Notes: generated by a model not told the origin, from the letters alone. Shown: positions 9,310 through 61,165, counted from the first letter of the stretch. The stretch: DNA of 64,000 nt from Candidatus Latescibacterota bacterium (GCA_965198095.1 OZ240239.1:118641-182640), one strand, 5' to 3'. A program made the numbers and translations.

Positions 9310-10821
9310 TCAACCCGAATGGGCAATTCGCACGTGAACGTCCTTCAGAAGGACTTTGTTCGACGGATCCCGGTTGATCACCTTGATGGTGTTCGCCCCT
9401 TTTCGGATCCGCTCCGGCTCGACGCCGTAGCTGACCCATTCCTCCTGGAGATCGCCGTTCGAAAGAGCGCGGTCGTTCAGCCTGACTTCCAGACGGTCCG
9501 CTTCGGTCAGACCGTCGACGCGGACGCTCAGCGTCACGCTGGGATTGGATCCCGAGTCCTTTCCGGGCAGGTCTTCGCCAATCGTCACAATCGCCGTGTG
9601 AGGCCGGGTCGGTAAGAGCATCACGGGACTTCCCGGGTCCAGCGCAGTCGGATACTCGTAAAACCGAAGCAGGCCTTTGATCTCCCGCCCCAGCAGAAAC
9701 CGAAAATGACCGTCCGGGAAGTAGTCCTTGTCCAGTCCGGCCAGGAGCTCGGGGTCGCCCACCTCCCGCCAGGCCGCGCTCGATGGGTCGAACAGATTGT
9801 AGGTGTGGATCCCGTCCGCACCCGCGTGCCAGACGTACATCGCCCTGGCGCGGAAGTTCCTGAGCGCGATCCCGTCCTGCACGTCGGGCGGCCCCTGACG
9901 CCGCCTGGATCCTGACCAGGTCAGATCCGGATAGACCGGCACGCCGTGCTCCCGGCCCAGCTTTACCCAGGTCTCCCACGGCGCCAGCTCCATCTCCCCG
10001 GGGACCAGCAGATCCACGAGATCCTCCTTCAGCCACGCCCTCACGTCCAGGCCCATCACTTCGCAGCACCCGACAGAGGCGGGAAGGCGCTCCGCCACGA
10101 GCATCGGGCGGCCGCGCTCCAACCCGACCTGCTCCGTCATCTCGCGAATACGGCGGTGCAGGCCCGTCATGATCTCCCGCTCCACCTGCGTGCAGTCCTC
10201 CCCATTCGTGCCGCATTTGAAATGAGGCGGGTGGCGAAGCCAGTCCAGCTCGATGCCGTCCACGTCGTACCGCTTGCAGACATCCGCAAGCAGCTCGAAC
10301 GCCCGTTCCTGAACCTCCGGTTCGTCGTAATTCAGTCCTGACCACATTCCGTACTCGGATGGGTCTTCCAGCGATCCGTGCAGAACCTCGGGGTGGTCCT
10401 TCTTGAACTGAGGAATCATCTCAGACCACCGCGGCTGGCCGTCGTGGGTATCGTTCATCCGCATAGACATGAAAATCTCGATCCCGTTCTCCCTGCAGAA
10501 GTCGATCATAATCTGAAGAGGGTCCAGACCCGCCTCGTGGAACGCCTCGATCATGTTCGGCGCGAACACACGCGTCTTCGCGAGGAACGGTTCCGCGACA
10601 TCGCTGATGTAGGACACGTGACCCAGCCCTGCGCTCCAGGGGCAGTAGAAGATCGAGTCGACGTGCGATCCGATCAGCCCTGTCGTGCGGTCCGCAAGGA
10701 GAGCTTCGCGGCTCACCTCCTTGAGGTTGTAGACAATATCGCAGCCGTCGTTGTTGAAAATGATCCGACGTTTTCGGTGTTTGGCCTGCTCTCGCTGTTC
10801 CCTCAGTCGTTTCAATTCCAT
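9310..10821 (-). CDS. GHL-family TIM-barrel glycoside-hydrolase-like protein, subfamily B
   Basis: Start refined to MELKRLREQREQ.. (M23 of ORF 9310..10887), supported by a GAGGAG Shine-Dalgarno and by the N-terminus of the 7705 paralog. Motifs IIFNNDGCDI, DSIFYC, YDVDGIELDWLRHP. Confidence 0.6.
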   Translation of the reverse strand: MELKRLREQREQAKHRKRRIIFNNDGCDIVYNLKEVSREALLADRTTGLIGSHVDSIFYCPWSAGLGHVSYISDVAEPFLAKTRVFAPNMIEAFHEAGLDPLQIMIDFCRENGIEIFMSMRMNDTHDGQPRWSEMIPQFKKDHPEVLHGSLEDPSEYGMWSGLNYDEPEVQERAFELLADVCKRYDVDGIELDWLRHPPHFKCGTNGEDCTQVEREIMTGLHRRIREMTEQVGLERGRPMLVAERLPASVGCCEVMGLDVRAWLKEDLVDLLVPGEMELAPWETWVKLGREHGVPVYPDLTWSGSRRRQGPPDVQDGIALRNFRARAMYVWHAGADGIHTYNLFDPSSAAWREVGDPELLAGLDKDYFPDGHFRFLLGREIKGLLRFYEYPTALDPGSPVMLLPTRPHTAIVTIGEDLPGKDSGSNPSVTLSVRVDGLTEADRLEVRLNDRALSNGDLQEEWVSYGVEPERIRKGANTIKVINRDPSNKVLLKDVHVRIAHSG

Positions 10822-19530: not shown

Positions 19531-19660
19531 AGCTTACGTTCGCCAGCAGGAGCTGGCTCCTACCTTATGAACGGCTTGTGAATATTACCTGATTCCAAAC
19601 GCCGGTAAATCCGGTAGGAGCCGCCTCCCGGCGGCGAACACTTCACCCCGATACTCTCAA
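19531..19660. repeat. REP-like hairpin repeat (GGCTCCTACC ... CCGGTAGGAGCC family), single copy
   Basis: ..GCCAGCAGGAGCTGGCTCCTACCTTATGAACGGCTTGTGAATATTACCTGATT..CCGGTAAATCCGGTAGGAGCCGCCTCCCGGCGGCGAACACTTCACC. Same family as the units around the RAYT gene. Confidence 0.6.
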
Positions 19661-21517: not shown

Positions 21518-21721
21518 TTCCTCCCAAGGTAAATTTCGCCGTCCGGAGACGGCTTTCGGTTGACAGAGACGGCCGCCGTGATCGGATTCGTCGCCGTCTG
21601 GAGACGGATCCTACCATATGAATAGACGTCTGAAACGGTTCAACAACGAACCCACGGTACTCCTGTTCTGATTCCCGGGTGCTCGCCTTCACGATCCACG
21701 AACAACGGTTTTTACGATCCC

Positions 21722-24841: not shown

Positions 24842-25888
24842 TTAGAAGGACCCGCTCACCGTAAACCGGATCGGCTTGTGGTCGAGCAGTTCATCCAGCT
24901 CAGAATACGACACGTCGGCCATGATGCTCCGACTACCGCCGAACGTGCCCTTGACACCCGCGCCCACGCTCCAGCTCTGAGCATCATACTTGAACCGGTT
25001 CCCGGCGCGCAGGGCGAGCATGTTGTTGAACCACAGCTCCGCGCCCACGTGATACCGCTGCCAGGAGTCTGTGTGATAGGCGCCCTCGAAGGCCACCGTC
25101 ACATACGTCGGGTCGCCTATGTTGCCCATCACCTCCCCGGCCAGGCCGAGGTTGAAGATCACGGGCTGAGACGACTCGAAGATGTCGATCGCGCTGACGT
25201 CGTTCCCCAGGTTCTTGATGCCCATGCCGATCCTCAGACTCTCGAACCCCGTGTGCATCAGCGTGCCCGCGCTCAGCAGCACCGCGGTGACCTCTTCGTC
25301 CAGACCCAGCTCGGACTTCACGTAACGCAGCTGGACGCCCGCCCCCAACTTGTCGGTCATCTGATAGGCATAGTGAAAACCGATGCCCGTGTCGCCCAGA
25401 TCCAGCATCTGACCCGTGCCTTCCGGGGCCAGGGACGTGGTCTGCTCGACGTCCGGAAAGCTCAGCGTGATCACCGAAAGCCCGACCACGCCGATCGGGG
25501 TGTTGACCGCAACGGCGCCCGTGCGGTAATCCATCTCGCCGAACCACCGCATCCCGCCGAACGACCACCCGAAGTTCTCGATGCCGGCGATCCCGGCCGG
25601 GTTGTAGTAGATCGCGTCCATCCCGTCCGCCACCGCCGTGAAGGCCTCACCCATCGACTCCAGTCGGGCCGTGGGCGCGATCTTCAGGAAGTGGAACGTG
25701 GACGGATTCTGCTTCGTAAAGCGATCGAAGTCCGACAACGTCTCGTCCGAGAGCGACGCCTTCGGATCGAAGGGGATGTCCTGGAAGTCTGTCGTTACGA
25801 TTTCGGCCTGGGCCCATGCCGGGGCAGATGCAAACGGGAGAGCCGCAGCCAGCGCCAGGACGGTTAGCGTGCATACAATCCATTTCAT
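24842..25888 (-). CDS. outer-membrane beta-barrel protein, FadL/PorV-like
   Basis: 348 aa. N-terminal signal peptide (MKWIVCTLTVLALAAALPFASAPAWAQA). YYNPAGIA (NPA-type hatch motif). Alternating amphipathic strands. C-terminal Phe (..FTVSGSF). Confidence 0.5.
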   Translation of the reverse strand: MKWIVCTLTVLALAAALPFASAPAWAQAEIVTTDFQDIPFDPKASLSDETLSDFDRFTKQNPSTFHFLKIAPTARLESMGEAFTAVADGMDAIYYNPAGIAGIENFGWSFGGMRWFGEMDYRTGAVAVNTPIGVVGLSVITLSFPDVEQTTSLAPEGTGQMLDLGDTGIGFHYAYQMTDKLGAGVQLRYVKSELGLDEEVTAVLLSAGTLMHTGFESLRIGMGIKNLGNDVSAIDIFESSQPVIFNLGLAGEVMGNIGDPTYVTVAFEGAYHTDSWQRYHVGAELWFNNMLALRAGNRFKYDAQSWSVGAGVKGTFGGSRSIMADVSYSELDELLDHKPIRFTVSGSF

Positions 25889-25928
25889 AGCGTGTTTCCC
25901 TTTATGAATGAGGTTGTTCTCGTCCGTC

Positions 25929-28280
25929 CTACCTGTGGATGACCAGGTAACCGCTCTGCGTCTTCCCGCGGTTTGAGGGAAGCAGGCTCTCCACCACCCA
26001 GTAGTAGACCCCCGTCATCAGCTCGCTGGTGAGTGTAGCGTTCTTCAGCGTGAATTTGGCCTCGCCGGAGGTGCTATTTCTGTGGTAGAGCGTCGAGACC
26101 AGGTCGCCGCCCACGCTGAAGATCGAGATCTTGGCCTGGGTGGGAACGCCCACGAACCGCATCTTGAGCGCCCCGGCGTAGCTCTGGTCGTCCGCCCGGA
26201 TGTTCAGCGGGTTGGGGACCACGCGGATCTGAGTCTCCAGCGCGTCGGCGGCCGCCGTCGGAGGCTGGCTCGGCACAAAATCTTTCAGCGTCCTCTGCTC
26301 GGGTGCCGAATAGCCGCCCTCCATCCCGCCGGTCACGTGAGACGACATCTGCGCGGGCAGATCCGCAAGGGTCTTTGACCCCTCGCTCCAGTCCGACTTC
26401 GCAGAGGCCACGGCCCGCACGTTGTAGAAGTTGGCGAACCCGGCCAGGGACTCCGAATCCGTCCAGGCGTAGGAGGTGCCCGCCCCGGTGGCCGCGACCT
26501 CCTCCTTCAGGATCCAGGGTCCATATTCCGCATAGACCGACTGGTAGACCCGGTAGGCCGTCACGTCGGTCGTCCCGTAGTCAGGATTGATCGCGCTTTC
26601 AGGCGCGCCGGTCCATTCGACCAGGTTTTGAGCCGAATCGCTGTTCTTCACCGTGAAATCGACATCGGGCGGTGTGTTGGGGATCTGCCACTCGTTCGAG
26701 TAGGCGAACAGCGCGTGGCTGATGTTCGTCCACAGCCCTTCGTGGCCCTTGGCCAGCTCGGCATTGCGGAACGCGTCGTCCGTCCCCTTCGACCCGACCG
26801 TGTTCATCGCCCAGCCTGTCGGGTCTATAGGATATCCCGTCTGGGAGTTGATCGTGACGTGGGAGCCGGTGCCCACCACATTCGCCATCACCAGCTTCAC
26901 CTGGTCCCCCGGGTCCATCGTGTAGGGCCCATACAGCAGGTCGACGAAGCCCAGCTCCACTTGCGAAGGCGGCGCGTGGGAAGCCGCCGTCCAGGCGTCG
27001 TAGCGGTCGGCGTTTGAGACCGGGCCTAATCCATCCGCCGGGTCCACGACATCGTTCCCGGACTCTTGCTTCCAGAAGTGCCAGAGCGGCTCTCCCGCGG
27101 GCTCCACATACCCCGCGGCCGCGTCCGCCGCGTTCCAGGCCCCGGTGCCGCTGCTCCTCCAGGCCAGGGCGCCGTACCCGACGTAGTCCGGAGAAAGCGG
27201 CATGCCGTTCGGCCGTAGGCTCGCGTTCAGCCAGCTCGGGTCGACGCAGGCAGCAAGGATGCAGACCTCCGCAATGAACGGGTCGCCCGTGTCGTCGTCA
27301 GGCGTCAACGGGAGGTCCCCGTCCCACTGCACGTGCCAGTTCCGCCCGACAAGATTGGCGTTGCCTTTGAACCCGGCGGCCTCGGAGTAGTCGATCCACT
27401 CGTCCGAATCATCGTCTCTGAAATAGTGCCGGCCGCCGTGGTAGCCGAAGCGGGAGGTGTTGCCGGTCTGGTTGATGTTGAAGCCGTTGATTCCCCCGAA
27501 GTAGGCCCCCGTGATCTGCGAGTCGGAGGTGTTCGTCCAGACCAGCTCGTGGACGAGCATGTCGTCCAGGTCCTGGTTGCTCCAGGCCAGCACTCTCCGC
27601 TTGGCCGTGAGCACGTTGGACCCGCCGTGCTCGTTCGACTCCCACTCCGAGATCATGATCGTCTCGGCCGTATTCTGCAAAGGCGAGTAGATCCCGTAGT
27701 CGTAGTTGTGGATCTCATACGGGTGCTGGGTCGTCGGATCGCCGGATAGCGGCACCGCCCCCGGCCACCAGTTGGACGTGCTCTCTCCGGGTTTCTTAGC
27801 ATCGGATTTACTCGACTTCGTGTTGATGCCCCAGGTCGCCTCGGGGCTGTTCTCGATATCGTAGGTGTGGGGGAGGACCTCCGGGGTGGTCTGCCGCGGC
27901 CCCGTAAAGGAGGCATACTTTTCGCCCCCCACCTGTGTCAGCGAGATCAGGCCCTCGCTCACAGAAAACATCGTGCCCTCGTAGGCCCCGCAGTGCCCCG
28001 TTGGCTTGACACTCCAGTACCAGTCCACCTGAGGGGCCGCGCACGAGCTCGCCGGGGTGCCCGGGAAGCTCAGCATCCACATCCCCCGGTTGCCCTTCCC
28101 TGGGAAGGCCGAGCTGGTGACGCCGTTGTTCGCGAACCCGTTCCAGACGTTTGCCCGGTCCAGGTTGCGCCTCGAGGTCATCATGTTGATCTGGGCGGAG
28201 GCGCTGAACGTGTCTGCGGCAAGCAACGCAGCCGCAGCCAAGCCGAGCACCGCCCATCTCTTCAACTGATTACCGAACAT
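25929..28280 (-). CDS. secreted protein with probable C-terminal T9SS sorting domain (function unknown)
   Basis: Start refined to MFGNQLKRWAVLGLAAAALLAADTFSASAQ (signal peptide; AAGGAG Shine-Dalgarno). The last ~70 aa (AKISIFSVGGDLVSTLYHRN...TGVYYWVVESL..GYLVIHR) fit the T9SS C-terminal domain pattern. ORF track 25929..28334. Confidence 0.5.
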   Translation of the reverse strand: MFGNQLKRWAVLGLAAAALLAADTFSASAQINMMTSRRNLDRANVWNGFANNGVTSSAFPGKGNRGMWMLSFPGTPASSCAAPQVDWYWSVKPTGHCGAYEGTMFSVSEGLISLTQVGGEKYASFTGPRQTTPEVLPHTYDIENSPEATWGINTKSSKSDAKKPGESTSNWWPGAVPLSGDPTTQHPYEIHNYDYGIYSPLQNTAETIMISEWESNEHGGSNVLTAKRRVLAWSNQDLDDMLVHELVWTNTSDSQITGAYFGGINGFNINQTGNTSRFGYHGGRHYFRDDDSDEWIDYSEAAGFKGNANLVGRNWHVQWDGDLPLTPDDDTGDPFIAEVCILAACVDPSWLNASLRPNGMPLSPDYVGYGALAWRSSGTGAWNAADAAAGYVEPAGEPLWHFWKQESGNDVVDPADGLGPVSNADRYDAWTAASHAPPSQVELGFVDLLYGPYTMDPGDQVKLVMANVVGTGSHVTINSQTGYPIDPTGWAMNTVGSKGTDDAFRNAELAKGHEGLWTNISHALFAYSNEWQIPNTPPDVDFTVKNSDSAQNLVEWTGAPESAINPDYGTTDVTAYRVYQSVYAEYGPWILKEEVAATGAGTSYAWTDSESLAGFANFYNVRAVASAKSDWSEGSKTLADLPAQMSSHVTGGMEGGYSAPEQRTLKDFVPSQPPTAAADALETQIRVVPNPLNIRADDQSYAGALKMRFVGVPTQAKISIFSVGGDLVSTLYHRNSTSGEAKFTLKNATLTSELMTGVYYWVVESLLPSNRGKTQSGYLVIHR

Positions 28281-28314
28281 GGGTAAGACTCCTTCTGTGT
28301 GAATGCGCTGCCAT

Positions 28315-31300
28315 TTAGAACGACAGGCGTGCACCGAGGACGAACAGGCGCGGCTGTTCCCCTACGCCACCGCCGGTAGGCGCGCCGTAGGACTCTGCCT
28401 GCCCGAGTGAATACCGGGTCATGTCGCGGTAGTCCCCGTACTTCAGGAAGTTCGCGTCGTCGGGCTCAAACGCCGACAGCCCGTAGAGGACGTAGTTGGA
28501 CGTCGTCGGCAGCTCGTCCTTCTGGTTGAACAGGTTCCGGATCTCGACGAAGGCCGTGGCCGTCCCGGACTGGCCGAAGCTGAAGTCCTTCTCCACGTTC
28601 AGGTCGGTCACCGTGTTGATCGGCGAGTTGCGAAGCTGCGTCGGTGCGTCAGGCGGCGTGTAATTATAGGGCGTGCCGCCCTGGACCCGGTAGAGCATCG
28701 TCACACGGCTCCCGGCCAGGGCCTTCATTTTGTAATCGGCCGGGGCCGAGAACAGGAACTGAAGCGCCGCGTAGTTGCGCCGGTCGATCCCGTTCGTCGG
28801 CTTCGGGAGCCGGTAGACATTCCGGTGGCTCGCAAACGTCTGGTCATACCCCTCGACCCGCAACGGCTGCAGCACGTAGCCCTGGGGCCCGTTGTCCGCG
28901 CCCACACCGGCGAGGTGTGCGTCGTAATTCGCCTGTGCGCGAGCCTTGTAGTCGGCCCGTTCCGCGGCCGTCGGGACCCTGGGCGTCTCCGTTCCGTCGG
29001 AATTCGAGTCTACGCCCAGGAAAAAGTCCGGGCCATCCACGAAGGACGGGTCGTGGAAGAAGACCACCGTCCACGTCCCCTGACCCGCCTTCAGCCACTG
29101 CGTGTTCCAGGACAGGTTGAACGAGGTCATCTGGCTGAACATCTTCTTGAATGAGAGCTCGAACCCGCGGGAGGTCTTCACCGTCGAGATGTTGCCCGAC
29201 CGGAAGGAGTTGTCCTTCGTCACGCCGTCCGGCCACAAGTCGGTGTTGGCCACCCAGTAATACCGCCGCTGCATGATCTGCCCCTCCAGGTCCTTGAAGT
29301 AGGCCGTGGAGCTGAGCACGTAGTCGCCGGCGAAGTTCCAGTCTATCCCGGCTTCGAACGTGACCGTGCGCTGGGGGTCGAGGTCCGTCGTGGCATACCG
29401 CTGGTTGTGCGGCTGCTCGAGCGAGTTGCCGAGTTCCGTCTGGTCGATCTGCCCGTTGTCGTTCACATCGGTGTCCACGGTGCGCGACCTGAACCCGCGG
29501 TCGTAGAGGAACTGCTTGGAGGGCATCTCGTGAAGCACGCCGCTGTAGAACCGGATCGTGGAGCGCTCCGTAATCGGGTGCGAGATGCCGAGCCGCGGGC
29601 TCACGTTCGTGATCCAGTCGGTCGACCGGAACGGCACGTTCTCGAAGCGCCGCATCCGCCACCAGTGCCACCACTGCTGGCCGTCCTGCACCCAGATGTC
29701 GCCCGCGTGCAGGGCGTCCGCCCGGAGGCCCGCGTTGATCACCAGGCCCTCGAACTCCATCTTGGTCTGGACGTAGCCCCCGACCTGCTTCGGGTTGAAG
29801 GACTCCCAGCCATCGTATATGTTGCCCTTGCCGGCCATGCGGATCCGCCGCTCATTCCCACCCGGCCTCAGGTCGTGATATTCAAACGCCAGCAGGTCAT
29901 AACGGTAGGCCTCCAGCCCGGCCTTAGCCAGGATCTGCTTGGCCACCTGGCTCGTCACGTCCGCCTTTAACGAGATGCGTTTGCGATCGTGATCCATAAG
30001 CGCATAGACACTGTATTGCTGGGTAAACCCGTAGTCATCCCTCGATTTGGACTCCGACGAGCCCTCCGCAGCGGCAACGTCGGTAGTGGTCCTCGAATTC
30101 TGCCAGGAGACCCGGATGTCGTAGAAGGTCGTCGGCGAGATCGTATGCGTGGCGGTCAAATAGGCGGCACTCTCCTTGAAGGTATGCACGCCGTGGGAAG
30201 CAAACCCCTCCGGCAGGAACATGGCGGAGGCATCCGTGGCGTTTGTCCCCCCCCCAAAATAAAAACGTTTACCAATGAAGGGACCCCGACGGAAATAGCC
30301 CAACTGGTCCCCATCATACTGGTCGCGGGTGGAATGAATACCGCCCACCTTGAACTTCATTGTGCCGCCCGAGCGGAAGGTGAAGCTCCCCATCCCCGAG
30401 AAGTTGCCCGGCGGACCCATGTTGGCGTTGGGGGTGACGGGCGCCGTCCGGTCGGTCTTGGCATTCACGAAGAACCCGGCGTTGTCAGACAGCGGGCCGT
30501 GAACCGAACCTTCGATCCAGTGACCTGTCTTTTCGTCGTAGTCGGTCCGGCTGTGGGACGATGTAAAGTCCGAATCGGACCAGGGGTTGGCCAGCCCGAT
30601 GTAACGCTTGAGCCAGCCGCTGTCGTAGATGTTGGGCCCGAAGTGCTTCACCCCCGGCGGCTCAAACCGGTACTCCAGCTGGCCACCGAATCGGGATCCG
30701 GACTCCCTGGTGACCATGCTGATCACGCCGCCAGAGGCGCCGCCATACTCGGCGTCCATCCCGCCTACGGTCACCACCACCTCCTGCAGTGCGCCCTTGT
30801 TCAGCGGGATCCACTGCTCGTAGTCGAGGTAGGTGTCGTCGTTGAGCATCTTGACGCCGTCCACCTCGTAATACTGCTGAGGCGCGGAGTTGGTCTCTGC
30901 GGTGTCGCTGCCCCGGAGGCGCACGTTGCCGTCCACCGACACCCCGGGCTGCAGCTCGAGCAGGTCATCGGTGTCCCGCGCCAGCGGCACGCTCTGAATG
31001 TCGAAGATGTCGACGACGTAACGGCTCGTCGTCTTGTCGGGTTCCACCGGAGGACGCCGTGCCGTCACCACCATCTCGGCGGCCTCCAGCGTAGCTTCCG
31101 TCATCGTGAAATTCAGTCTGGTCGTGAAGTCCGACTGCACCGACACTTCCTCCTGAGTCGAGGTGACATACCCCACCATCGACGCCGTTACCCGAACGAG
31201 GCCGGGGTCTACCGCAAGGATCAGGTAGTAACCCTCGGCATCGGTCGTGGCGCCGCGCCGGGTGCCCTCGATCACGACGTTGGCCCCCGGAAGCGGATTG

Positions 31301-31422
31301 CCGTCCGCGTCGGCGACCACGCCCTGGACCTTCCCGTACGTGCTGGCCATCACGCTGTCCGGACTGAACACCACCAGCAGCCCGGTCAACAGAAAGCAGA
31401 CGAAACTGAGTAGATATCTCAT
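28315..31422 (-). CDS. TonB-dependent outer-membrane receptor with N-terminal carboxypeptidase-regulatory-like domain (SusC-like)
   Basis: 1035 aa. Signal peptide. GKVQGVVADADGNPLPGANVVIEGT (CarbopepD_reg-like). Plug region. C-terminal ..LGARLSF. Confidence 0.75.
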   Translation of the reverse strand: MRYLLSFVCFLLTGLLVVFSPDSVMASTYGKVQGVVADADGNPLPGANVVIEGTRRGATTDAEGYYLILAVDPGLVRVTASMVGYVTSTQEEVSVQSDFTTRLNFTMTEATLEAAEMVVTARRPPVEPDKTTSRYVVDIFDIQSVPLARDTDDLLELQPGVSVDGNVRLRGSDTAETNSAPQQYYEVDGVKMLNDDTYLDYEQWIPLNKGALQEVVVTVGGMDAEYGGASGGVISMVTRESGSRFGGQLEYRFEPPGVKHFGPNIYDSGWLKRYIGLANPWSDSDFTSSHSRTDYDEKTGHWIEGSVHGPLSDNAGFFVNAKTDRTAPVTPNANMGPPGNFSGMGSFTFRSGGTMKFKVGGIHSTRDQYDGDQLGYFRRGPFIGKRFYFGGGTNATDASAMFLPEGFASHGVHTFKESAAYLTATHTISPTTFYDIRVSWQNSRTTTDVAAAEGSSESKSRDDYGFTQQYSVYALMDHDRKRISLKADVTSQVAKQILAKAGLEAYRYDLLAFEYHDLRPGGNERRIRMAGKGNIYDGWESFNPKQVGGYVQTKMEFEGLVINAGLRADALHAGDIWVQDGQQWWHWWRMRRFENVPFRSTDWITNVSPRLGISHPITERSTIRFYSGVLHEMPSKQFLYDRGFRSRTVDTDVNDNGQIDQTELGNSLEQPHNQRYATTDLDPQRTVTFEAGIDWNFAGDYVLSSTAYFKDLEGQIMQRRYYWVANTDLWPDGVTKDNSFRSGNISTVKTSRGFELSFKKMFSQMTSFNLSWNTQWLKAGQGTWTVVFFHDPSFVDGPDFFLGVDSNSDGTETPRVPTAAERADYKARAQANYDAHLAGVGADNGPQGYVLQPLRVEGYDQTFASHRNVYRLPKPTNGIDRRNYAALQFLFSAPADYKMKALAGSRVTMLYRVQGGTPYNYTPPDAPTQLRNSPINTVTDLNVEKDFSFGQSGTATAFVEIRNLFNQKDELPTTSNYVLYGLSAFEPDDANFLKYGDYRDMTRYSLGQAESYGAPTGGGVGEQPRLFVLGARLSF

Positions 31423-31980
31423 CTATTCTCCTCCTAATGCTATCTCGCGAGAAAACTGCGCGGCAGTTGCGACATGGCCTCGTCGATTTGATGATGGCCT
31501 AACGCCGAAGCAATTTGCAACAACGGTGTTGCCGTGCTTACCGTAGAAACGTTAAACGCCATTCAGACAAGGCACCACCTCCTTGAACCTGAAGCGATAA
31601 CAAAAACTGTGAAATACACCCGCGGATTTAGAACTAGATAAACTACGCAGTATACGCTCGGCGTGTCAAGAAAATTCTCAGCTTCAAAAACAGACAGGTT
31701 GGGTAGCCTATTTTTCACGAACGACGCGTTGACTCTTCTCCGGCCCCGACGCGCGGGATGATTGAATTCCCGCGCTCAGAGAAACGGACCGTCTTCCTGC
31801 GTCGGACGCGCGTCTATGAACCTATCCGATGCAACATCAAAGGCCAACACATCGACTCTGTCTTTCCGGTTGTCGTTGTCACAGGCGAGGCTTTTCTGAA
31901 GGCGCGCCAACTCACGTTGCAAACTTCGTGACATGAAACAAGCCGCCCGGAGCAGGATGCGCGGCGTGACATCCGATCTC

Positions 31981-33258
31981 TCACCAGGTGCCGGCTCTGC
32001 CCGCTTCAGAAGGGCCCCTATAGACGGGCTCGAACGTGTCGTCGTCGTCCGCGCCGAACCCCGTGGGCGGATGCACGACGCGCGACGCGCGTTGCAGGAC
32101 ATAGACCACCTTGAGGCTTGAATTCCGAATCACAACCCAGGCAAGCTGGGCGTCATCCCGGGGTCTCAAGGCCACGCCGCGATTGGGGATGGCTCCGGTC
32201 GTCCATCCGTTCACGAGGGCACGATCCAGGGGGAGGCCCACAGTGCCGGTTTGGTCGATGGACGTAAACCGGCTGCTGTCGTAGGTCGTGTAGTGCAACC
32301 GCCCGGATTCTGCACTTGCATCTACGCGGTCGATCTGAAAGGGAAAGACATCGAAAAAGGAAAGGTCCGGATCGACCTCGACCTCCAGCTCAGCGGAATA
32401 GACGGTCCGCCGGGTCAGGTTCGGGACGTCGAATCGGAGGAGCGACCCATACCGGATGCCGGAGGCCACCATCAGCTGATCGGTCTCCGGACGGTCGTCC
32501 GTGCGCGCTCCCCAGTAGGTGTCGTCAACCGCACCGGTCTCAAATCGGTGTGCCTCTCCGCCAAGGGTAAACAGGAACTCGAGCTTGGGGCGCCGCCCCT
32601 CTGTTCCCGGCCTCGAGGCATCCCCCGACGTGAGCACGGTGAGAAACTCCGATCCGGCCGCCGGATGCAGCATCACCTCCAGAAACGGCGCGGCGGCGTC
32701 GGCATCCAGCGCGTCGTCCAGAATCAGTCCGGGAAGGTCGACCGTCAGGCGGCCGGCGCCATCGTCCGTGACAGTGGCGCCGGGTAACGCCGAAGCCGGA
32801 AGGTCGACGTGTGCGGCAGGATCCCGTCTGCTCACGAACGTGCTCGTTTCATCCCAAACCCCCTCCGGGCGGCTGATTTGCAGGTCCGGGATGCCGCGAC
32901 CGCCACCATCCGCGTGCGTCCGGAGATGCATCCGGAGCGATATCATGACAAGGTCGCGAGCGCTGTTGCCGCCCGCCGCGCGAGCCATGGAATCGGCAGG
33001 CATCCGGAAGCGAAGCAAAGACCTCAACACGATCCCGTTCATCCGCCCAACCCGCAACTCGTCAGACTTCCCGTGGACGAGTGGCACGATGCCCTCGAAC
33101 GTCGACTTACCCTCCGAAAGGGCGAGTGGATCCAGTTCTGTCAGGAGCGGCTCGGACGAGACCTCCGACAGCCTTACGACGTCGCCGGACTTCCCGCAAG
33201 AGACGATGGATGCGAACGCCAGAAGAGGCAGTGCGAGGAGGGATTTTGAGAAGGTCAT
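31981..33258 (-). CDS. hypothetical lipoprotein
   Basis: Start refined to MTFSKSLLALPLLAFASIVSCGKSG (lipobox IVSC). No recognisable domain. ORF track 31981..33414. Confidence 0.45.
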   Translation of the reverse strand: MTFSKSLLALPLLAFASIVSCGKSGDVVRLSEVSSEPLLTELDPLALSEGKSTFEGIVPLVHGKSDELRVGRMNGIVLRSLLRFRMPADSMARAAGGNSARDLVMISLRMHLRTHADGGGRGIPDLQISRPEGVWDETSTFVSRRDPAAHVDLPASALPGATVTDDGAGRLTVDLPGLILDDALDADAAAPFLEVMLHPAAGSEFLTVLTSGDASRPGTEGRRPKLEFLFTLGGEAHRFETGAVDDTYWGARTDDRPETDQLMVASGIRYGSLLRFDVPNLTRRTVYSAELEVEVDPDLSFFDVFPFQIDRVDASAESGRLHYTTYDSSRFTSIDQTGTVGLPLDRALVNGWTTGAIPNRGVALRPRDDAQLAWVVIRNSSLKVVYVLQRASRVVHPPTGFGADDDDTFEPVYRGPSEAGRAGTW

Positions 33259-33399
33259 GGGTCTTCCGGTGCTGCCGCGTCTTCCGTGAACCTTGAATTC
33301 CCTTCGTAAAGCTACGGAAAAGTGGGAAAAAGTAAAGCCTTCCAGGGGTGGTTCTCCAAACGGAATCGGCATTGGGATGGCATACACACACGTCGTCAT

Positions 33400-34250
33400 C
33401 CGCGGCTTCGCCAACAGAGTTGGCGATTGGATTGGCGCACCCTAAGTCGCCGTCTGTGGCTTCGCCAACAGAGTTGGCCATAGGATTGGCACATCTTAAA
33501 TCGCAATCTGTGGCTTCGCCAACAGAGTTGGCGATTGGATTCGTGCACCCTAAATCGCAATCTGTGGCTTCGCCAACAGAGTTGGCTCCTACCGGATTTG
33601 GGACGTTATGACATCGGTGAATCCAATAGGCCCAATAATCCGGTAGGAGCCGTCTCCCGACGGCGAACCATCTGATCGCAGTGTGGTGCCTCTGCTGAAC
33701 CTATGGGTGGCGATTGGATTCGTGCACCCTACGTCGCCGTCTGTGGCTTCGCCAACAGAGTTGGCTCCTACCGGATTCGGGACGTTTTGATATCGGTGAA
33801 TTCAATTCACCGGAAAATACGGTAGGAGCCGTCTCCCGACGGCGAACCATCTGATCGCGGTGTGGTGCCTCTGCTGAACCTATGGGTGGCGATTGGATTG
33901 GCGCACCCTAAGTCGCCGTCCATGGCTTCGCCAACAGAGTTGGCAATTGGATTGGCGCACCCTAAGTCGCCGTCCATGGCTTCGCCAACAGAGTTGGCTC
34001 CTACCGGATTCGGGACGTTTTGATATCGGTGAATTCAATTCACCGGAAAATACGGTAGGAGCCGTCTCCCGACGGCGAACCATCTGATCGCGGTGTGCGC
34101 CTCTGCTGAACCTATGGGTGGCCATAGGATTGGCGCACCCTAAATCGCAATCTGTGGCTTCGCCAACAGAGTTGGCCATGGGATTGGCGCACCCTAAATC
34201 GCAATCTGTGGCTTCGCCAACAGAGTTGGCTCCTACCGGATTTGTGGCGT
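33400..34250. repeat. mosaic BIME-like repeat array combining two repeat families
   Basis: Family 1 is a ~54-bp tandem unit: GTGGCTTCGCCAACAGAGTTGG followed by (C)GATTGGATTGGCGCACCCTAAGTCGCCGTCT-like sequence. Family 2 is the ~125-160-bp hairpin unit GGCTCCTACCGGATT..CGGTAGGAGCCGTCTCCCGACGGCGAAC, the same family as the RAYT-associated REPs. Confidence 0.7.
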
Positions 34251-34349
34251 TATGACATTGGCGCTACGGAGCGCAAAATACGTGCCGCCAGCAGCTCGGC
34301 TGCCCGCGGCGTTGCGCGCTTCTTCGTGTCACTCCGCGATACGAAAAAC

Positions 34350-34379
34350 AAGCCGCCCGGAGCGCCTGCTCCGGGCGGC
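34350..34379 (-). terminator. Rho-independent terminator of the 41604-to-34419 catabolic operon
   Basis: AGCCGCCCGGAGC gcct GCTCCGGGCGGCT hairpin followed on the minus strand by UUGUUUUUCG. Confidence 0.6.
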
Positions 34380-34418
34380 TGCTCATTGCCGCGATATGAT
34401 TTCGCCATTTGGAACCGA

Positions 34419-35192
34419 TCAAACCTGGGTCGTGCCGGCCATGGATCCGCCATCAACCGCGATGGTCTGACCGCTGACGTATCGGGATTCGTCAGAGGCC
34501 AGGTAGACCGCCAACTCGGCGATATCTTCGGGCCGACCGAGCCGCCCCAGGGGGACGGCCGCCGCGTTCACGCTCCGTTTCGCCTCGCCGTCTTCGGTCG
34601 ACGCGTAGTAGCGCGCGAGCATGGGCGTATCGGTCGCGATCGGGCAGATCGCGTTGGCGCGAATGGCCTCCTTCGCGAAGTCGATTGCGAGGGACCGGGT
34701 GAGGGCGGTCACGGCCCCCTTCGAGGCGGCGTACAAGGGCATATCGGGCCGGACCCGCAGCGCGGTGAGCGAGGCGATATTGATGATCGAGCCGCCTCCG
34801 CTCTCGATCATCAGCGGAATAGCCTGTTTGCACACGAGCAGGACCGCCAGGACGTTCAGATTCATCGTGCGATGGAAATCGGCCTCGGCCGTCTCCAGCA
34901 GGGGCTTGAGCTCGCAGATCCCGGCGTTGTTGTCCAGGACGTCCAGTCTTCCATACTCGGACCGAATGGCCGCCACTGACTGCCGCACATCGGCCTCGGA
35001 GGTCACGTCCGCCTCCAAGGCCAAGGCGGTTCCGCCCTGGCTCCGGATCCGGTCCGCGACCTTCGACCCGTTCTGCGCATCGATGTCCACGACCACCACC
35101 TTGGCCCCTTCTCTGGCGAAGGCCAGCGCAGTGGCCTGTCCGATGCCGGCTCCGCCGCCGGTGATCAGCGCAACCTTATTCCGTAAACGCAT
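34419..35192 (-). CDS. SDR-family oxidoreductase
   Basis: Start at [20 protein letters not shown] (TGxxxGxG). YxxxK in LYAASKGAV. Confidence 0.85.
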
Positions 35193-35322
35193 AGCCTTGT
35201 CTCGCGGATGATGCATTTGTAGGGGCGAACACGAGGTCCACCCCTACCGATCTGTCTTCCGAATACCATCATTCGATCCGGTCCCCGATAAGACGAACGA
35301 CGATCCAAGGTTTTAAAGTCCG

Positions 35323-35357: not shown

Positions 35358-36296
35358 TCACGTTTCTCTATAGATCGGCACGTTGGCGACGGCCGCTTCG
35401 ATCTGATCGGGACCGTAGGTCGCCTGATCCGAGCTCGGTACCAGCCGGCTGTCCATACCGGTCATCTCCGCCCGCAGGCCCGTTCTCGCCGCCTTGATCT
35501 CCCGCATTCGAGCCAGCCATCGCGCCCGCGTGAGATGCCCGTCGGGGTTCGAATGCCAGCTGCCAGGGAAGACATCGGGATCGTCCCACGGCGCCGTCTC
35601 TTTCGGTTCGTTGATGATCAACTGCCAGCGGGTGGCCTCCATCTCCGCTTCGGTTTCCGGATACTTGTAGAACCCGACGCGACACATTCTGCGGTCCACG
35701 AAGCCGCCCCAACTGGCGTGCCACAGCCGAACGTCGAAGGCCACGACGTCGCCCGGATCCGCCTCGCAGGCGTAGGCGGGGACGTGCTCCACGCCCCCGA
35801 GCGCCCGCTTGATCGGGTGCGATCCGCCCAGCTTCTGTTTGGCCCTCACGTCGCGCAGCACATCGTGAAACGGATTCTGGTGTGAGCCCGAAATCACCCG
35901 AAGCGCGCCCCTGTCCGCCCGGACCGGCTGGAGATAGAAGAGAAAGCTCACGCCGGACTGGTTGATGTTCACCGTGTCGGGGTGCCATTTGGTGCCTGGG
36001 TTCACGAAGCGCATTACGCTGCACGGCCCGATCGCGAAGACGTCTTCGCCGAACATCCGCTCCGCCGTCCCGACGAACCTCGGGTCTTCGGTCAGCCCGG
36101 AAAGAAACGGCCCGTCCTGGACCCTGAAATAGAAGCCCTGCCGCTTGCTGCCGTCGAACGCGTCATACCGAGAAACGCGCTCGGCCGCGCGCTCGAACTC
36201 GGCGTTGATTGCCTCCACCTCGTCCCGCGTGAACAGGCTTTTCAGGATTACGAATCCGAACGTCCTGAAGTGCGAAAGCTGCTCCTGGGTCAACAT
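35358..36296 (-). CDS. phytanoyl-CoA dioxygenase (PhyH) family oxygenase
   Basis: Start refined to MLTQEQLSHFRTFGFVIL (AAGGAGG Shine-Dalgarno). WHPDT..D and HASWGG consistent with a 2-His-1-carboxylate site. ORF track 35358..36335. Confidence 0.65.
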   Translation of the reverse strand: MLTQEQLSHFRTFGFVILKSLFTRDEVEAINAEFERAAERVSRYDAFDGSKRQGFYFRVQDGPFLSGLTEDPRFVGTAERMFGEDVFAIGPCSVMRFVNPGTKWHPDTVNINQSGVSFLFYLQPVRADRGALRVISGSHQNPFHDVLRDVRAKQKLGGSHPIKRALGGVEHVPAYACEADPGDVVAFDVRLWHASWGGFVDRRMCRVGFYKYPETEAEMEATRWQLIINEPKETAPWDDPDVFPGSWHSNPDGHLTRARWLARMREIKAARTGLRAEMTGMDSRLVPSSDQATYGPDQIEAAVANVPIYRET

Positions 36297-36516
36297 GAGC
36301 CTTCCCTCCTTTTGCAGCGTCCCCCGTCCCCGCAAAAGACATGCCGTGTGGCACCGGCAGCAAGCTGCCGGTGGATCATGATGAGCCTGTTGTGTTTCTT
36401 AGCGTGAGGAATCTTGCACGGGCAGACAAGCTGCCCGTGGCACACGTGACTGGATTCGCGATCTCACGCGCAGAACCACCGGCGATCCGATTCAGTCTTT
36501 CGAACGACGGTTTTTT

Positions 36517-41654: not shown

Positions 41655-41805
41655 CAAGCCCGGCAAATCCGGTAGGAGCCTTACCTTCGCCAGCAGGAGC
41701 TGGCTCCTACCTTATGAACGGCTTGTGAGTATTACCTGATTGCAAGCCCGGTGAATCCGGTAGGAGCCGCCTCCCGGCGGCGATCCATTCACGCCGATAC
41801 TCGCC
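41655..41805. repeat. REP-like hairpin repeats (1.3 units) on the 3' side of the RAYT pseudogene
   Basis: CCGGCAAATCCGGTAGGAGCC then a full unit CTTACCTTCGCCAGCAGGAGCTGGCTCCTACCTTATGAACGGC..CCGGTGAATCCGGTAGGAGCCGCCTCCCGGCGGCG. Confidence 0.65.
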
Positions 41806-41815
41806 TTGCTTGATC

Positions 41816-42323
41816 TTACCAATCCGGGAAAAGACACGAGAACGGCCAATCTTCTGGGGTTGCAACATATCTTTTTCTCACCGGATTTTCATGGATGTAT
41901 CCGATTTTCATGGATGTATCCGAGATGTCGAGCAAACGCCTCTTTGTTACGAAGCTTATGATCATAGAACCCGCGCTGCCAGAACCTTCCCGTCCTGCAT
42001 TGTAGTCTGTTGATTCCTCTAGCTGTATGGCTTCCGAATGAAGCCATCACGCTGGAAAGATCCTGATCCTCTCCCAAGGCCACGATCAAATGCAAGTGAT
42101 CAGGCATCAGGACGTATCCTTCACATCTGAGACGCTCATTTTCATGAAGCCAGCGCAAACACCGAACGATGAGCTCCGGCACTTCAGATTCCTCTTTCGG
42201 ATTCATTGGGTCGCGAACCAGTGGACCTGTAGTATCGTCCACGCACTTTGTTATGGAGTAGATGGATCCGGGCAAGGAATTACGCCATTTCCTCAGAGCC
42301 GATTGATGGAACCCTCTTTCCAT
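41816..42323 (-). pseudogene. REP-associated tyrosine transposase (RAYT; IS200-like Y1 HuH transposase) disrupted by a 19-bp tandem duplication
   Basis: The current ORF 41889..42323 encodes ..GYVLMPDHLHLIV.. (HuH) and ..RFWQRGFYDHKLRN..HLGYIHENRIHP, then stops. Removing one copy of the duplicated 19-mer (41881-41919, CCGGATTTTCATGGATGTAT / CCGATTTTCATGGATGTAT) restores ..YIHENPVRKRYVATPEDWPFSCLFPDW* and a 162-aa product ending at 41816. Confidence 0.7.
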
Positions 42324-42350: not shown

Positions 42351-42975
42351 AGCTTACCTTCGCCAGCAGGAGCTGGCTCCTACCTGATGAACGGCCTGTG
42401 AGTATTGCCTGATTGCAAGCCCGGTGAATCCGGTAGGAGCCGCCTCCCGGCGGCGAACACTTCACCTCGATCCTCGCCTTACCTTCGCCAGCAGGAGCTG
42501 GCTCCTACCTTTTGAACGGCTTGTGAGTATTGCCTGATTGCAAGCCCGGTAAATCCGGTAAGAGCCGCCTCCCGGCGGCGAACACTTCACCTCGATCCTC
42601 GCCTTACCTTCGCCAGCAGGAGCTGGCTCCTACCTCATGAACGGCTTGTGAGTATTACCTGATTTTTCAAACCCGGTAAATCCGGTAGGAGCCGCCTCCC
42701 GGCGGCGAACACTTCACCTTGATCCTCGCCTTACCTTCGCCAGCAGGAGCTGGCTCCTACCTCATGAACAGCTTGTGAGTATTACCTGATTTCAAACCCG
42801 GTAAATCCGGTAAGAGCCGCCTCCCGGCGGCGAACACTTCACCTCGATCCTCGCCTTACCTTCGCCAGCAGGAGCTGGCTCCTACCTCATGAACAGCTTG
42901 TGAGTATTACCTGATTGCAAGCCCGGTAAATCCGGTAGGAGCCGCCTCCCGGCGGCGAACACTTCACTTCGCAGA
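42351..42975. repeat. tandem array of five ~126-bp REP-like hairpin units on the 5' side of the RAYT pseudogene
   Basis: Five near-identical tandem units CTTACCTTCGCCAGCAGGAGCTGGCTCCTACCT[CT]ATGAAC[AG]GCTTGTGAGTATT[AG]CCTGATT..CCCGGTAAATCCGGTA[GA]GAGCCGCCTCCCGGCGGCGAACACTTCACCTCGATCCTCGC. Each contains the GGCTCCTACC/GGTAGGAGCC inverted repeat. No unique spacers. Confidence 0.75.
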
Positions 42976-61084: not shown

Positions 61085-61165
61085 TCGCCGCCGGGAGGCG
61101 GCTCCTACCGGATCAATGAGTGCGATGTATCTGGTAGGAGCCAACTCCCGTTGGCGACGAAATGA
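61085..61165. repeat. REP-like hairpin (short member of the GGCTCCTACC family)
   Basis: CGCCGCCGGGAGGCGGCTCCTACCGGATCAATGAGTGCGATGTATCTGGTAGGAGCCAACTCCCGTTGGCGACG. Confidence 0.55.

Follow-up and report, generated by a model that had tools for sequence, protein, structure and literature searches.

Bacterial interspersed mosaic elements (BIMEs) combine repetitive extragenic palindromes (REPs) and inverted REPs with variable linkers, often in tandem, and a tnpA_REP gene with adjacent REPs is called a REPtron (PMC8266576). In Pseudomonas fluorescens SBW25, tandem REPINs (REP doublets forming hairpins) and their flanks form ordered clusters, one beside each REP-associated tyrosine transposase (RAYT) gene (Bertels and Rainey, 2011, PMC3116915), and among GTAG-REPs, clusters are common in which single REPs and dimers are repeated along with the DNA beside them (Di Nocera et al., 2013, PMC3733652). 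A short perfect palindrome located 2 nt from the GTAG is the REP type of group-3 REPtrons, and a role of the GTAG in RAYT recognition and cleavage has been demonstrated (PMC8266576). REP/REPIN-RAYT systems have been studied mostly in Pseudomonas, enterobacteria and Stenotrophomonas. Here we analyze a repeat array in a 64,000-nt stretch of DNA from a Candidatus Latescibacterota bacterium (GCA_965198095.1 OZ240239.1:118641-182640), below called the window, which extends the system to an uncultured Latescibacterota-related lineage; a literature search found no paper naming both Latescibacteria and RAYTs.

The array occupies positions 33404..34237 and is read on the minus strand. It is very probably a GTAG-type REP/REPIN cluster of a RAYT (TnpA_REP) system, located at the home of a transposase gene here called RAYT-B, and as such a REPtron that lost its transposase. 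As such it represents no new type of repeat but one already known from bacteria, in a form that changes quickly.

REP and REPIN modules of the array

As a preliminary description of the stretch had stated, the array lies between the terminator of an upstream operon (34351..34380) and a lipoprotein-like gene that starts at 33258. The same description had counted at least nine copies of a 22-nt core. Nine exact plus-strand copies exist of a 20-mer, GGCTTCGCCAACAGAGTTGG (at 33404, 33458, 33512, 33566, 33745, 33924, 33978, 34156 and 34210), while the full 22-mer with its GT prefix is present in only six of the nine, the others starting with GC or AT. By chance, no copy of the 20-mer would be expected, and there is none in the 64-kb window outside the array; its confinement to the array, and that of the linker described below, was thus correctly noted. 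Scans of genome-contig and metagenome-contig collections also gave no match to the exact core, and exact look-ups of the two flanking proteins were likewise negative. Start-to-start distances between the copies are 54/54/54/179/179/54/178/54 nt, and Tandem Repeats Finder (TRF) bears out the tandem structure with periods of 54, 179 and 233 nt.

When read on the minus strand, the core proves to be a REP of the GTAG type. Its reverse complement, GGTAGGA-GCCAAC-TCT-GTTGGC-GAAGCC, is a headed REP, which makes the core the left REP arm of each REPIN. Aligned in the GTAG-reading orientation, all copies fit the template GGTAGGA + GCCxxC + 3-4-nt loop + GxxGGC + GA(A). Stem positions 4-5 co-vary (GCCGCC/GGCGGC, GCCAGC/GCTGGC, GCCAAC/GTTGGC and GCCGTC/GACGGC) across approximately 25 copies at 7 sites in the 64 kb. 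GCCAAC-TCT-GTTGGC and GCCGTC-TCCC-GACGGC make stems of 6-8 bp, and these hairpins appear in predicted folds. The TTGGCG..CGCCAA palindrome, reported earlier as an additional component of each unit, is indeed present, but it is the REP stem-loop itself, (T)CGCCAAC-AGA-GTTGGCG(A), and no separate feature. Like those of Marinomonas Mb, a group-3 REPtron, the REPs of the window are short perfect palindromes with a 6-bp stem 2 nt from the GTAG, whereas E. coli REPs are bulged and 30-40 nt long; inspection revealed no sequence relation to the Y, Z1 and Z2 REPs or to the L, S, l and r linkers of E. coli BIMEs. A genome-contig scan for the exact template GGTAGGAGCCxxC-N4-GxxGGCGA returned more than 118 loci (L001-L118) in Brocadiaceae, Scalindua, Nitrospirota, Nitrospinota, Latescibacterota, Victivallales and some metagenome-assembled genomes of Pseudomonadota. 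Such a common head and stem frame across phyla suggests that the underlying RAYT clade is widely distributed or has spread horizontally.

The GGCTCCTACC hairpin element, which had been taken for a second repeat family inserted four times into the array, consists of two inverted REPs around a 48-nt spacer and hence is a REPIN. Copy 1 of this REPIN-B family (33566..33667) has inverted headed REPs, with a GCCAAC stem on the minus strand and a GCCGTC stem on the plus strand. Copies 2 (33745..33846) and 3 (33978..34079) follow, and the 125-nt module of copy 3 equals that of copy 2 at 123 positions. Each of the three complete copies has the inverted REP pair, the short spacer and the single long hairpin of a REPIN, with folding energies of -28 to -29 kcal/mol (z = -5.0 to -6.8). 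Copy 4 (34210..34300), which abuts the terminator, retains an intact left headed-REP arm and half of the spacer, and its right arm is degenerate. Instead of four insertions there are therefore three complete elements and one degenerate element beside the terminator, and instead of two interleaved families a single one, of which the core, the segment following it and the hairpin element are all parts. The insertion of a 125-nt element into an older 54-nt array can be rejected, because the core belongs to the REPIN, and an insert would have had to recreate the perfect inverted partner of the core. Further GGCTCCTACC sites lie at 19.5, 41.7, 42.4-42.9 and 61.1 kb of the window.

The remainder of the array is made up of linkers. 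The S linker, a 33-nt 3' extension of the minus-strand REP, occurs eight times (33425..33457, and starting at 33479, 33533, 33712, 33891, 33945, 34123 and 34177); together with GAAGCC it gives 39 nt from a headed REP to the next headless one. No copy was found in the window outside the array. Contrary to the two alternating variants of a ~32-nt segment that had been proposed, the eight copies reassort three to four polymorphic blocks (GATTGG/CATAGG/AATTGG/CATGGG; GGCGCACCC/CGTGCACCC/GGCACATCT; AGTCGCCGTC/AATCGCAATC) and are pairwise 67-97% identical. Inspection of the variants showed no consistent compensatory changes that would indicate an internal hairpin in S. The T linker (33665..33711, 33844-33890 and 34077-34122) continues the plus-strand GCCGTC REP on its 3' side. 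It shares homology with S (z = 5.4; none of 2000 shuffles scored as high), and both linkers match their counterparts in a more distant relative, L123. We interpret the end of T, ...CCTATGG-GTGGC, as what is left of a headless hairpin after decay.

With R for the REP hairpin, h for the GGTAGGA head, S for the 3' linker, T for the inverted-arm linker, I for the inverted REP and Sp for the REPIN spacer, the array reads hR-S-R-S-T-I-Sp-hR-S-R-S-T-I-Sp-hR-S-T-I-Sp-hR-S-R-S-R-S-R in the direction of the flanking genes, i.e., on the minus strand. The corresponding plus-strand order is R-S1-R-S2-R-S3-R-P1-S4-R-P2-S5-R-S6-R-P3-S7-R-S8-R-P4, in which P4 is degenerate. The superunit folds into one long hairpin (-54.3 kcal/mol, z = -6.1). 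The head is found on four of the nine R copies and on all three inverted partners. In the five headless R copies it is replaced by CCAATC, CCTATG, CCAATT or CCCATG. One of these, copy 9 in gene direction (33404..33424, minus strand, GCCAAC-TCT-GTTGGC-GAAGCC), forms the lipoprotein-proximal end of the array and is kept as the last unit in two near-identical relatives, L119 and L122; the others are at 33458-33478, 33512-33532, 33924-33944 and 34156-34176, also on the minus strand.

The combination of a headed REP with a headless hairpin copy is not restricted to the array. The linkers of L123 all measure 39 nt and have ATG at their end (as CGATG or CCCATG), and behind each of them, whichever its orientation, the hairpin recurs without its head. 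Within the window, a dispersed arm (21535..21615, minus strand) comprises a headed REP (GGTAGGAT-CCGTC..), a 39-nt linker homologous to T (z = 5.4) and a headless GCCGTC hairpin. We infer from these sequences that the REP arm of the family is a double hairpin, made of a headed REP, a 39-nt linker and a headless hairpin copy, an arrangement that would place two direct repeats of at least 21 nt at a distance of 54 nt. Outside the family, a search of 150 same-template REPs belonging to other phyla yielded only one borderline case of a headless same-stem hairpin 3' of a headed REP, and TRF detected tandem REP arrays among the 118 same-template loci (in L064, with a 127-nt period) but no unit of the 54-nt type. 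The origin of the 54-nt unit at this place by a single microhomology (GCCA/TGGC) duplication was rejected, as L123 (74%) and L121 (73%) already have the order hR-linker-R.

As regards known GTAG-REP families, the GTAG tag, stems of 5-13 bp, dimers with spacers of 20-100 bp and large clusters all recur here. The survey of Di Nocera et al. found head-to-tail dimers to be absent or under-represented, whereas a head-to-tail pair with a fixed 39-nt linker and a tagless second member is the standard in the window. This arm of headed REP, 39 nt and headless hairpin is the sole unusual feature of the repeats. The comparison with E. coli BIMEs made in the preliminary description is justified insofar as REPs in both orientations and a small set of linkers are arranged in tandem and associated with tnpA_REP genes that have adjacent REPs; the two families, the alternating variants and the insertions do not hold, and runs of same-orientation headless hairpins are a feature of the window and not of BIMEs.

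Orthologous loci and RAYT-B

Orthologous loci were reached through homologs of the lipoprotein-like protein. The immediate flanks of the array are 99-100% identical to the window on both sides in L119. Between the short-chain dehydrogenase (SDR) gene and the lipoprotein gene, the spacer measures 2.2 kb in L119 versus 1.16 kb in the window, and contains the same modules plus an intact gene for the 161-aa RAYT-B. A second contig from the same sample, L122, has RAYT-B in the same place with different unit counts, and in the more distant L123 a 74%-identical RAYT is found in the same spacer beside the same REPs, of which there are only a few. The locus is thus a conserved home of RAYT-B, with the gene enclosed by the orthologous array of L119 and L122 and adjoining the REPs of L123. 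In the window array, tblastn found no RAYT-B remnant. Accordingly, a tnpA_REP gene with adjacent REPs is present at the L119, L122 and L123 loci and missing from the window array, which we therefore class as a REPtron remnant and not as a REPtron.

The RAYT-B protein matches the REP_Tyr_transpos model with 100 bits (cutoff 80), and is 55% identical to RAYT-A, the product of a second RAYT gene in the window that scores 115 bits. The IS200 model yields 28 and 21 bits, respectively. The proteins share with the insertion sequences (IS) of the IS200/IS605 group the Y1 HUH type of enzyme (Pfam Y1_Tnp) and the recognition of a hairpin with a 5' guide tetranucleotide, but they score as RAYTs, and the repeats of the window are short REP/REPIN units rather than the termini of an IS with a gene inside. 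RAYT-A and RAYT-B display the motifs HLHLIV/HVHLAI and YIHENP/YIYENP. The TAG stop codon of RAYT-B (L119 9341-9343, L122 4582-4584) falls within the GGTAGGA head of the next REP (...GAT TGG TAG GAGCCAAC...), and the end of RAYT-A is similar (...GAT TGG TAA GA).

Two further relatives differ at this site. In L121 the spacer contains a REPIN and an IS200-type TnpA instead of RAYT-B, another point of contact with the IS200/IS605 group. This TnpA (9406-9822, 138 aa, 77 bits with a cutoff of 55) stands beside the same REPIN, linker and degenerate hairpin, so that in related genomes the same intergenic site is occupied by two different Y1 transposases. The L120 spacer is only 87 bp long, keeps approximately 28 nt of REPIN spacer and lacks the terminator, on a 2x contig with frameshifted genes; for these reasons it was rejected as a clean empty site.

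The preliminary description had proposed length polymorphism as a check on the array, and two independent assemblies indeed share its grammar and differ in unit number. In a global alignment of the window and L122 spacers (95.1% identity), large differences are limited to four indels that each measure exactly 54 nt and a 558-nt indel carrying RAYT-B. Versus L119, there is a 611-nt RAYT-B indel, as well as indels of approximately one to three unit lengths (61, 103 and 167 nt). All three arrays follow the grammar {I-Sp-hR-S-(R-S)n-T}m, which is the structure of a BIME, and the array evolves much faster than its flanks. With flanks that are 99-100% identical and arrays that differ by exact 54-nt steps and by the presence or absence of a RAYT, the locus amounts to a natural experiment; the comparison documents the pace of cluster change and the loss of a RAYT from its own cluster.

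The closest counterparts are the REPIN clusters of SBW25, with which the array shares inverted GTAG-REPs around a short spacer, a long hairpin, and near-identical tandem copies that include the flanks. In both, a distinct REPIN cluster accompanies each RAYT, with three RAYT/REPIN families in SBW25 and two in the present genome. Unlike in SBW25, the arms carry a second, headless hairpin exactly 39 nt 3' of the headed REP, a 54-nt sub-unit has been amplified, the RAYT of the cluster is missing, and the host is a Latescibacterota-related uncultured bacterium. The distinctive points are thus the fixed double-hairpin arm, the amplified 54-nt sub-unit and the RAYT loss from its own cluster.

The 54-nt period probably goes back to the direct-repeat hairpins, by way of which units of R and S would be added or removed through unequal homologous recombination or through slippage during replication, and the same process acting between larger units would account for the 179- and 233-nt periods. 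Recombination between repeats flanking RAYT-B probably deleted the ~560-nt gene segment in the window lineage, with GCCA microhomology or homology possibly marking the junction. The headless copies are probably inert passengers and not RAYT substrates, because they lack the GTAG used by RAYTs for recognition and choice of the cleavage site. We infer that a host function need not be invoked.

Some points weigh against this interpretation. The absence of RAYT-B rests on the assembly, in which a collapse may have dropped the gene. Coverage of L122 is only 2x, and L119 has a few irregular units, possibly sequencing errors. Recombination or slippage is deduced solely from the geometry of the repeats and the lengths of the indels. 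A repeat array can be globally aligned in more than one way, so that the exact deletion junction is uncertain, and the inertness of the headless hairpins toward RAYT is putative.

Alternative explanations for the array

Instead of arising by recombination, the 54-nt units could be made by the RAYT itself, which would cleave single-stranded DNA at a CA or CT where the 39-nt linker is about to end (CCyATG) and transfer strands between neighboring REPs. The double-hairpin arm would then be a genuine transposition substrate and not a by-product of recombination. In vitro, strand transfer is performed by group-3 RAYTs, which cut at CT or CA on the 5' or 3' side of the REP (PMC8266576). In the array, the linker has a length of exactly 39 nt and CC(C/T)ATG or CCAATC at its end; in L123 it recurs in both orientations, and the arm ending at 21615 has one of similar length. 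Head-to-tail REP dimers are otherwise rare (PMC3733652), and the arm looks specific, given that a headless same-stem copy is essentially absent from the 150 same-template REPs of other phyla. We nevertheless find it doubtful that the RAYT makes the units, as the extra copies lack the GTAG that characterized RAYTs need to choose the cleavage site, and the dispersed arm at 21.6 kb ends in CCGAAA and not in CCyATG. Exact 54-nt indels amid 99-100% identical flanks are also what would be expected of unequal crossing-over between 21-nt direct repeats, and the array is intact in the window although RAYT-B is lost and RAYT-A frameshifted.

Equally doubtful is the associated view of the double-hairpin arm as a functional innovation of the Latescibacterota RAYT-B lineage, with a ~220-nt REPIN of two hairpins per arm as its actual non-autonomous element, a RAYT that cuts the CA of CCyATG directly ahead of the second hairpin, and 54-nt head-to-tail arrays as the products of cleavage and strand transfer. 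If true, this would add a new architecture to those known for REPINs and offer a natural read-out of what RAYTs do, an activity that is still poorly understood in vivo. The arm is suited to a RAYT cleavage assay, but it may be no more than a structural quirk that favors slippage.

Maintenance of the array for the benefit of the host seems unlikely. It could act as an insulator or backup terminator, as a block to 3'-5' exonucleases, or as a platform for gyrase or a protein of the integration host factor (IHF) type between the SDR operon and the lipoprotein gene, roles that have been attributed to REPs and BIMEs (PMC8266576). Its location exactly between a terminator and the promoter region of the next gene would fit, a read-through transcript is predicted to form all the REP hairpins, and there are two weak terminator-like matches inside the REPINs. 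A strong intrinsic terminator already precedes the array, however, and the number and order of units vary freely between near-identical genomes. The site has few REPs in L123, and the spacer is reduced to 87 bp in L120. Nothing indicates selection on the array as such, and no Rfam family was matched, either by the whole window at gathering thresholds or by the array at E <= 1.

It is very unlikely that the array, or at least the absence of RAYT-B, results from repeat collapse or mis-joining during assembly. The region is highly repetitive, with its 54-, 179- and 233-nt periods, L119 and L122 disagree within the array in spite of their origin from one sample, and some L119 units have small irregular indels. 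Yet three independent contigs agree in grammar and in the units at either end and have identical flanks, the window and L122 differ cleanly by whole numbers of units and by a single indel the size of a gene, and the order of the S variants differs in ways that a simple collapse would not be expected to produce.

A CRISPR array or a protein-coding tandem repeat can practically be dismissed in spite of the regular 54-nt spacing (18 codons), the partly palindromic repeat and an 87-aa open reading frame (ORF) through three units, because the inter-repeat segments are not unique spacers but 67-97% identical copies of one sequence, which marks the array as real and non-CRISPR, 125-nt modules that are not a multiple of 3 break the period, so that no reading frame persists, the ORFs of the array (87, 99 and 124 aa) match no NCBIfam model, and RAYT genes accompany the repeat, which belongs to the GTAG REPs. 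Such arrays should not be annotated as CRISPR-like or as new repeat families.

RAYT-A and neighboring features

The gene for RAYT-A, the transposase of the sister REPIN-A family, is located at 41816..42323 on the minus strand. Besides the NCBIfam REP_Tyr_transpos match (cutoff 80), the protein matches Pfam Y1_Tnp and the structure of E. coli TnpA_REP (4ER8, E = 1.7e-11). Just past the catalytic YIHEN motif, the gene is broken by a 19-nt tandem duplication (cggatacatccatgaaaat twice, ~41891-41928). As cggatacatccatgaaaat is single-copy in L119 and L121, the frameshift is specific to the window genome or its assembly. Neither of the two RAYT loci of the window thus has an intact RAYT gene, RAYT-A being frameshifted and RAYT-B missing.

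RAYT-A adjoins a tandem array of five REPIN-A copies with a 126-nt period (42353..42960), built on the same REP template with GCCAGC and GCCGCC stems. A further REPIN-A copy and an extra truncated REP lie on the opposite side of the gene (41671..41790). Together, RAYT-A and the REPIN-A arrays are a second, separate REPtron 8 kb from the array, with a frameshifted RAYT gene. As in the array and in the loci of the relatives, the REP copies flanking RAYT-A are intergenic. Two REPIN singletons are dispersed in the window. The one at 19536-19640 is a REPIN-A; in the one at 61085-61157, mixed stems (GCCGCC/GCCAAC) enclose a spacer of only 23 nt, as in the REPIN closest to SDR in L121 and L123.

On its lipoprotein side, the array is bordered by a degenerate S-like flank (33360..33403, minus strand; ~61% identity to one unit), which separates the promoter region of the lipoprotein gene from the last R. 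The product of the lipoprotein-like gene, on the minus strand, has no Pfam domain match. On the other side, the strong intrinsic terminator (minus strand, 13-bp stem and T-run) forms the upstream boundary and belongs to the SDR gene (34419-35216, minus strand). Upstream of SDR, the number of paralogs for PhyH (phytanoyl-CoA dioxygenase) varies, with one in the window (35358-36335), one in L119, two in L121 (6331-8190) and four in L120 (5119-9057); L122 has an rve-integrase fragment between its two PhyH paralogs. At window positions ~25250-31750, identity to L119 is only 76-90%, compared to 99-100% over the remaining shared 20 kb. This patch spans an outer-membrane receptor gene (CarboxypepD_reg/Plug) and the genes that follow it, and looks like a recombined or diversifying surface-protein cassette.

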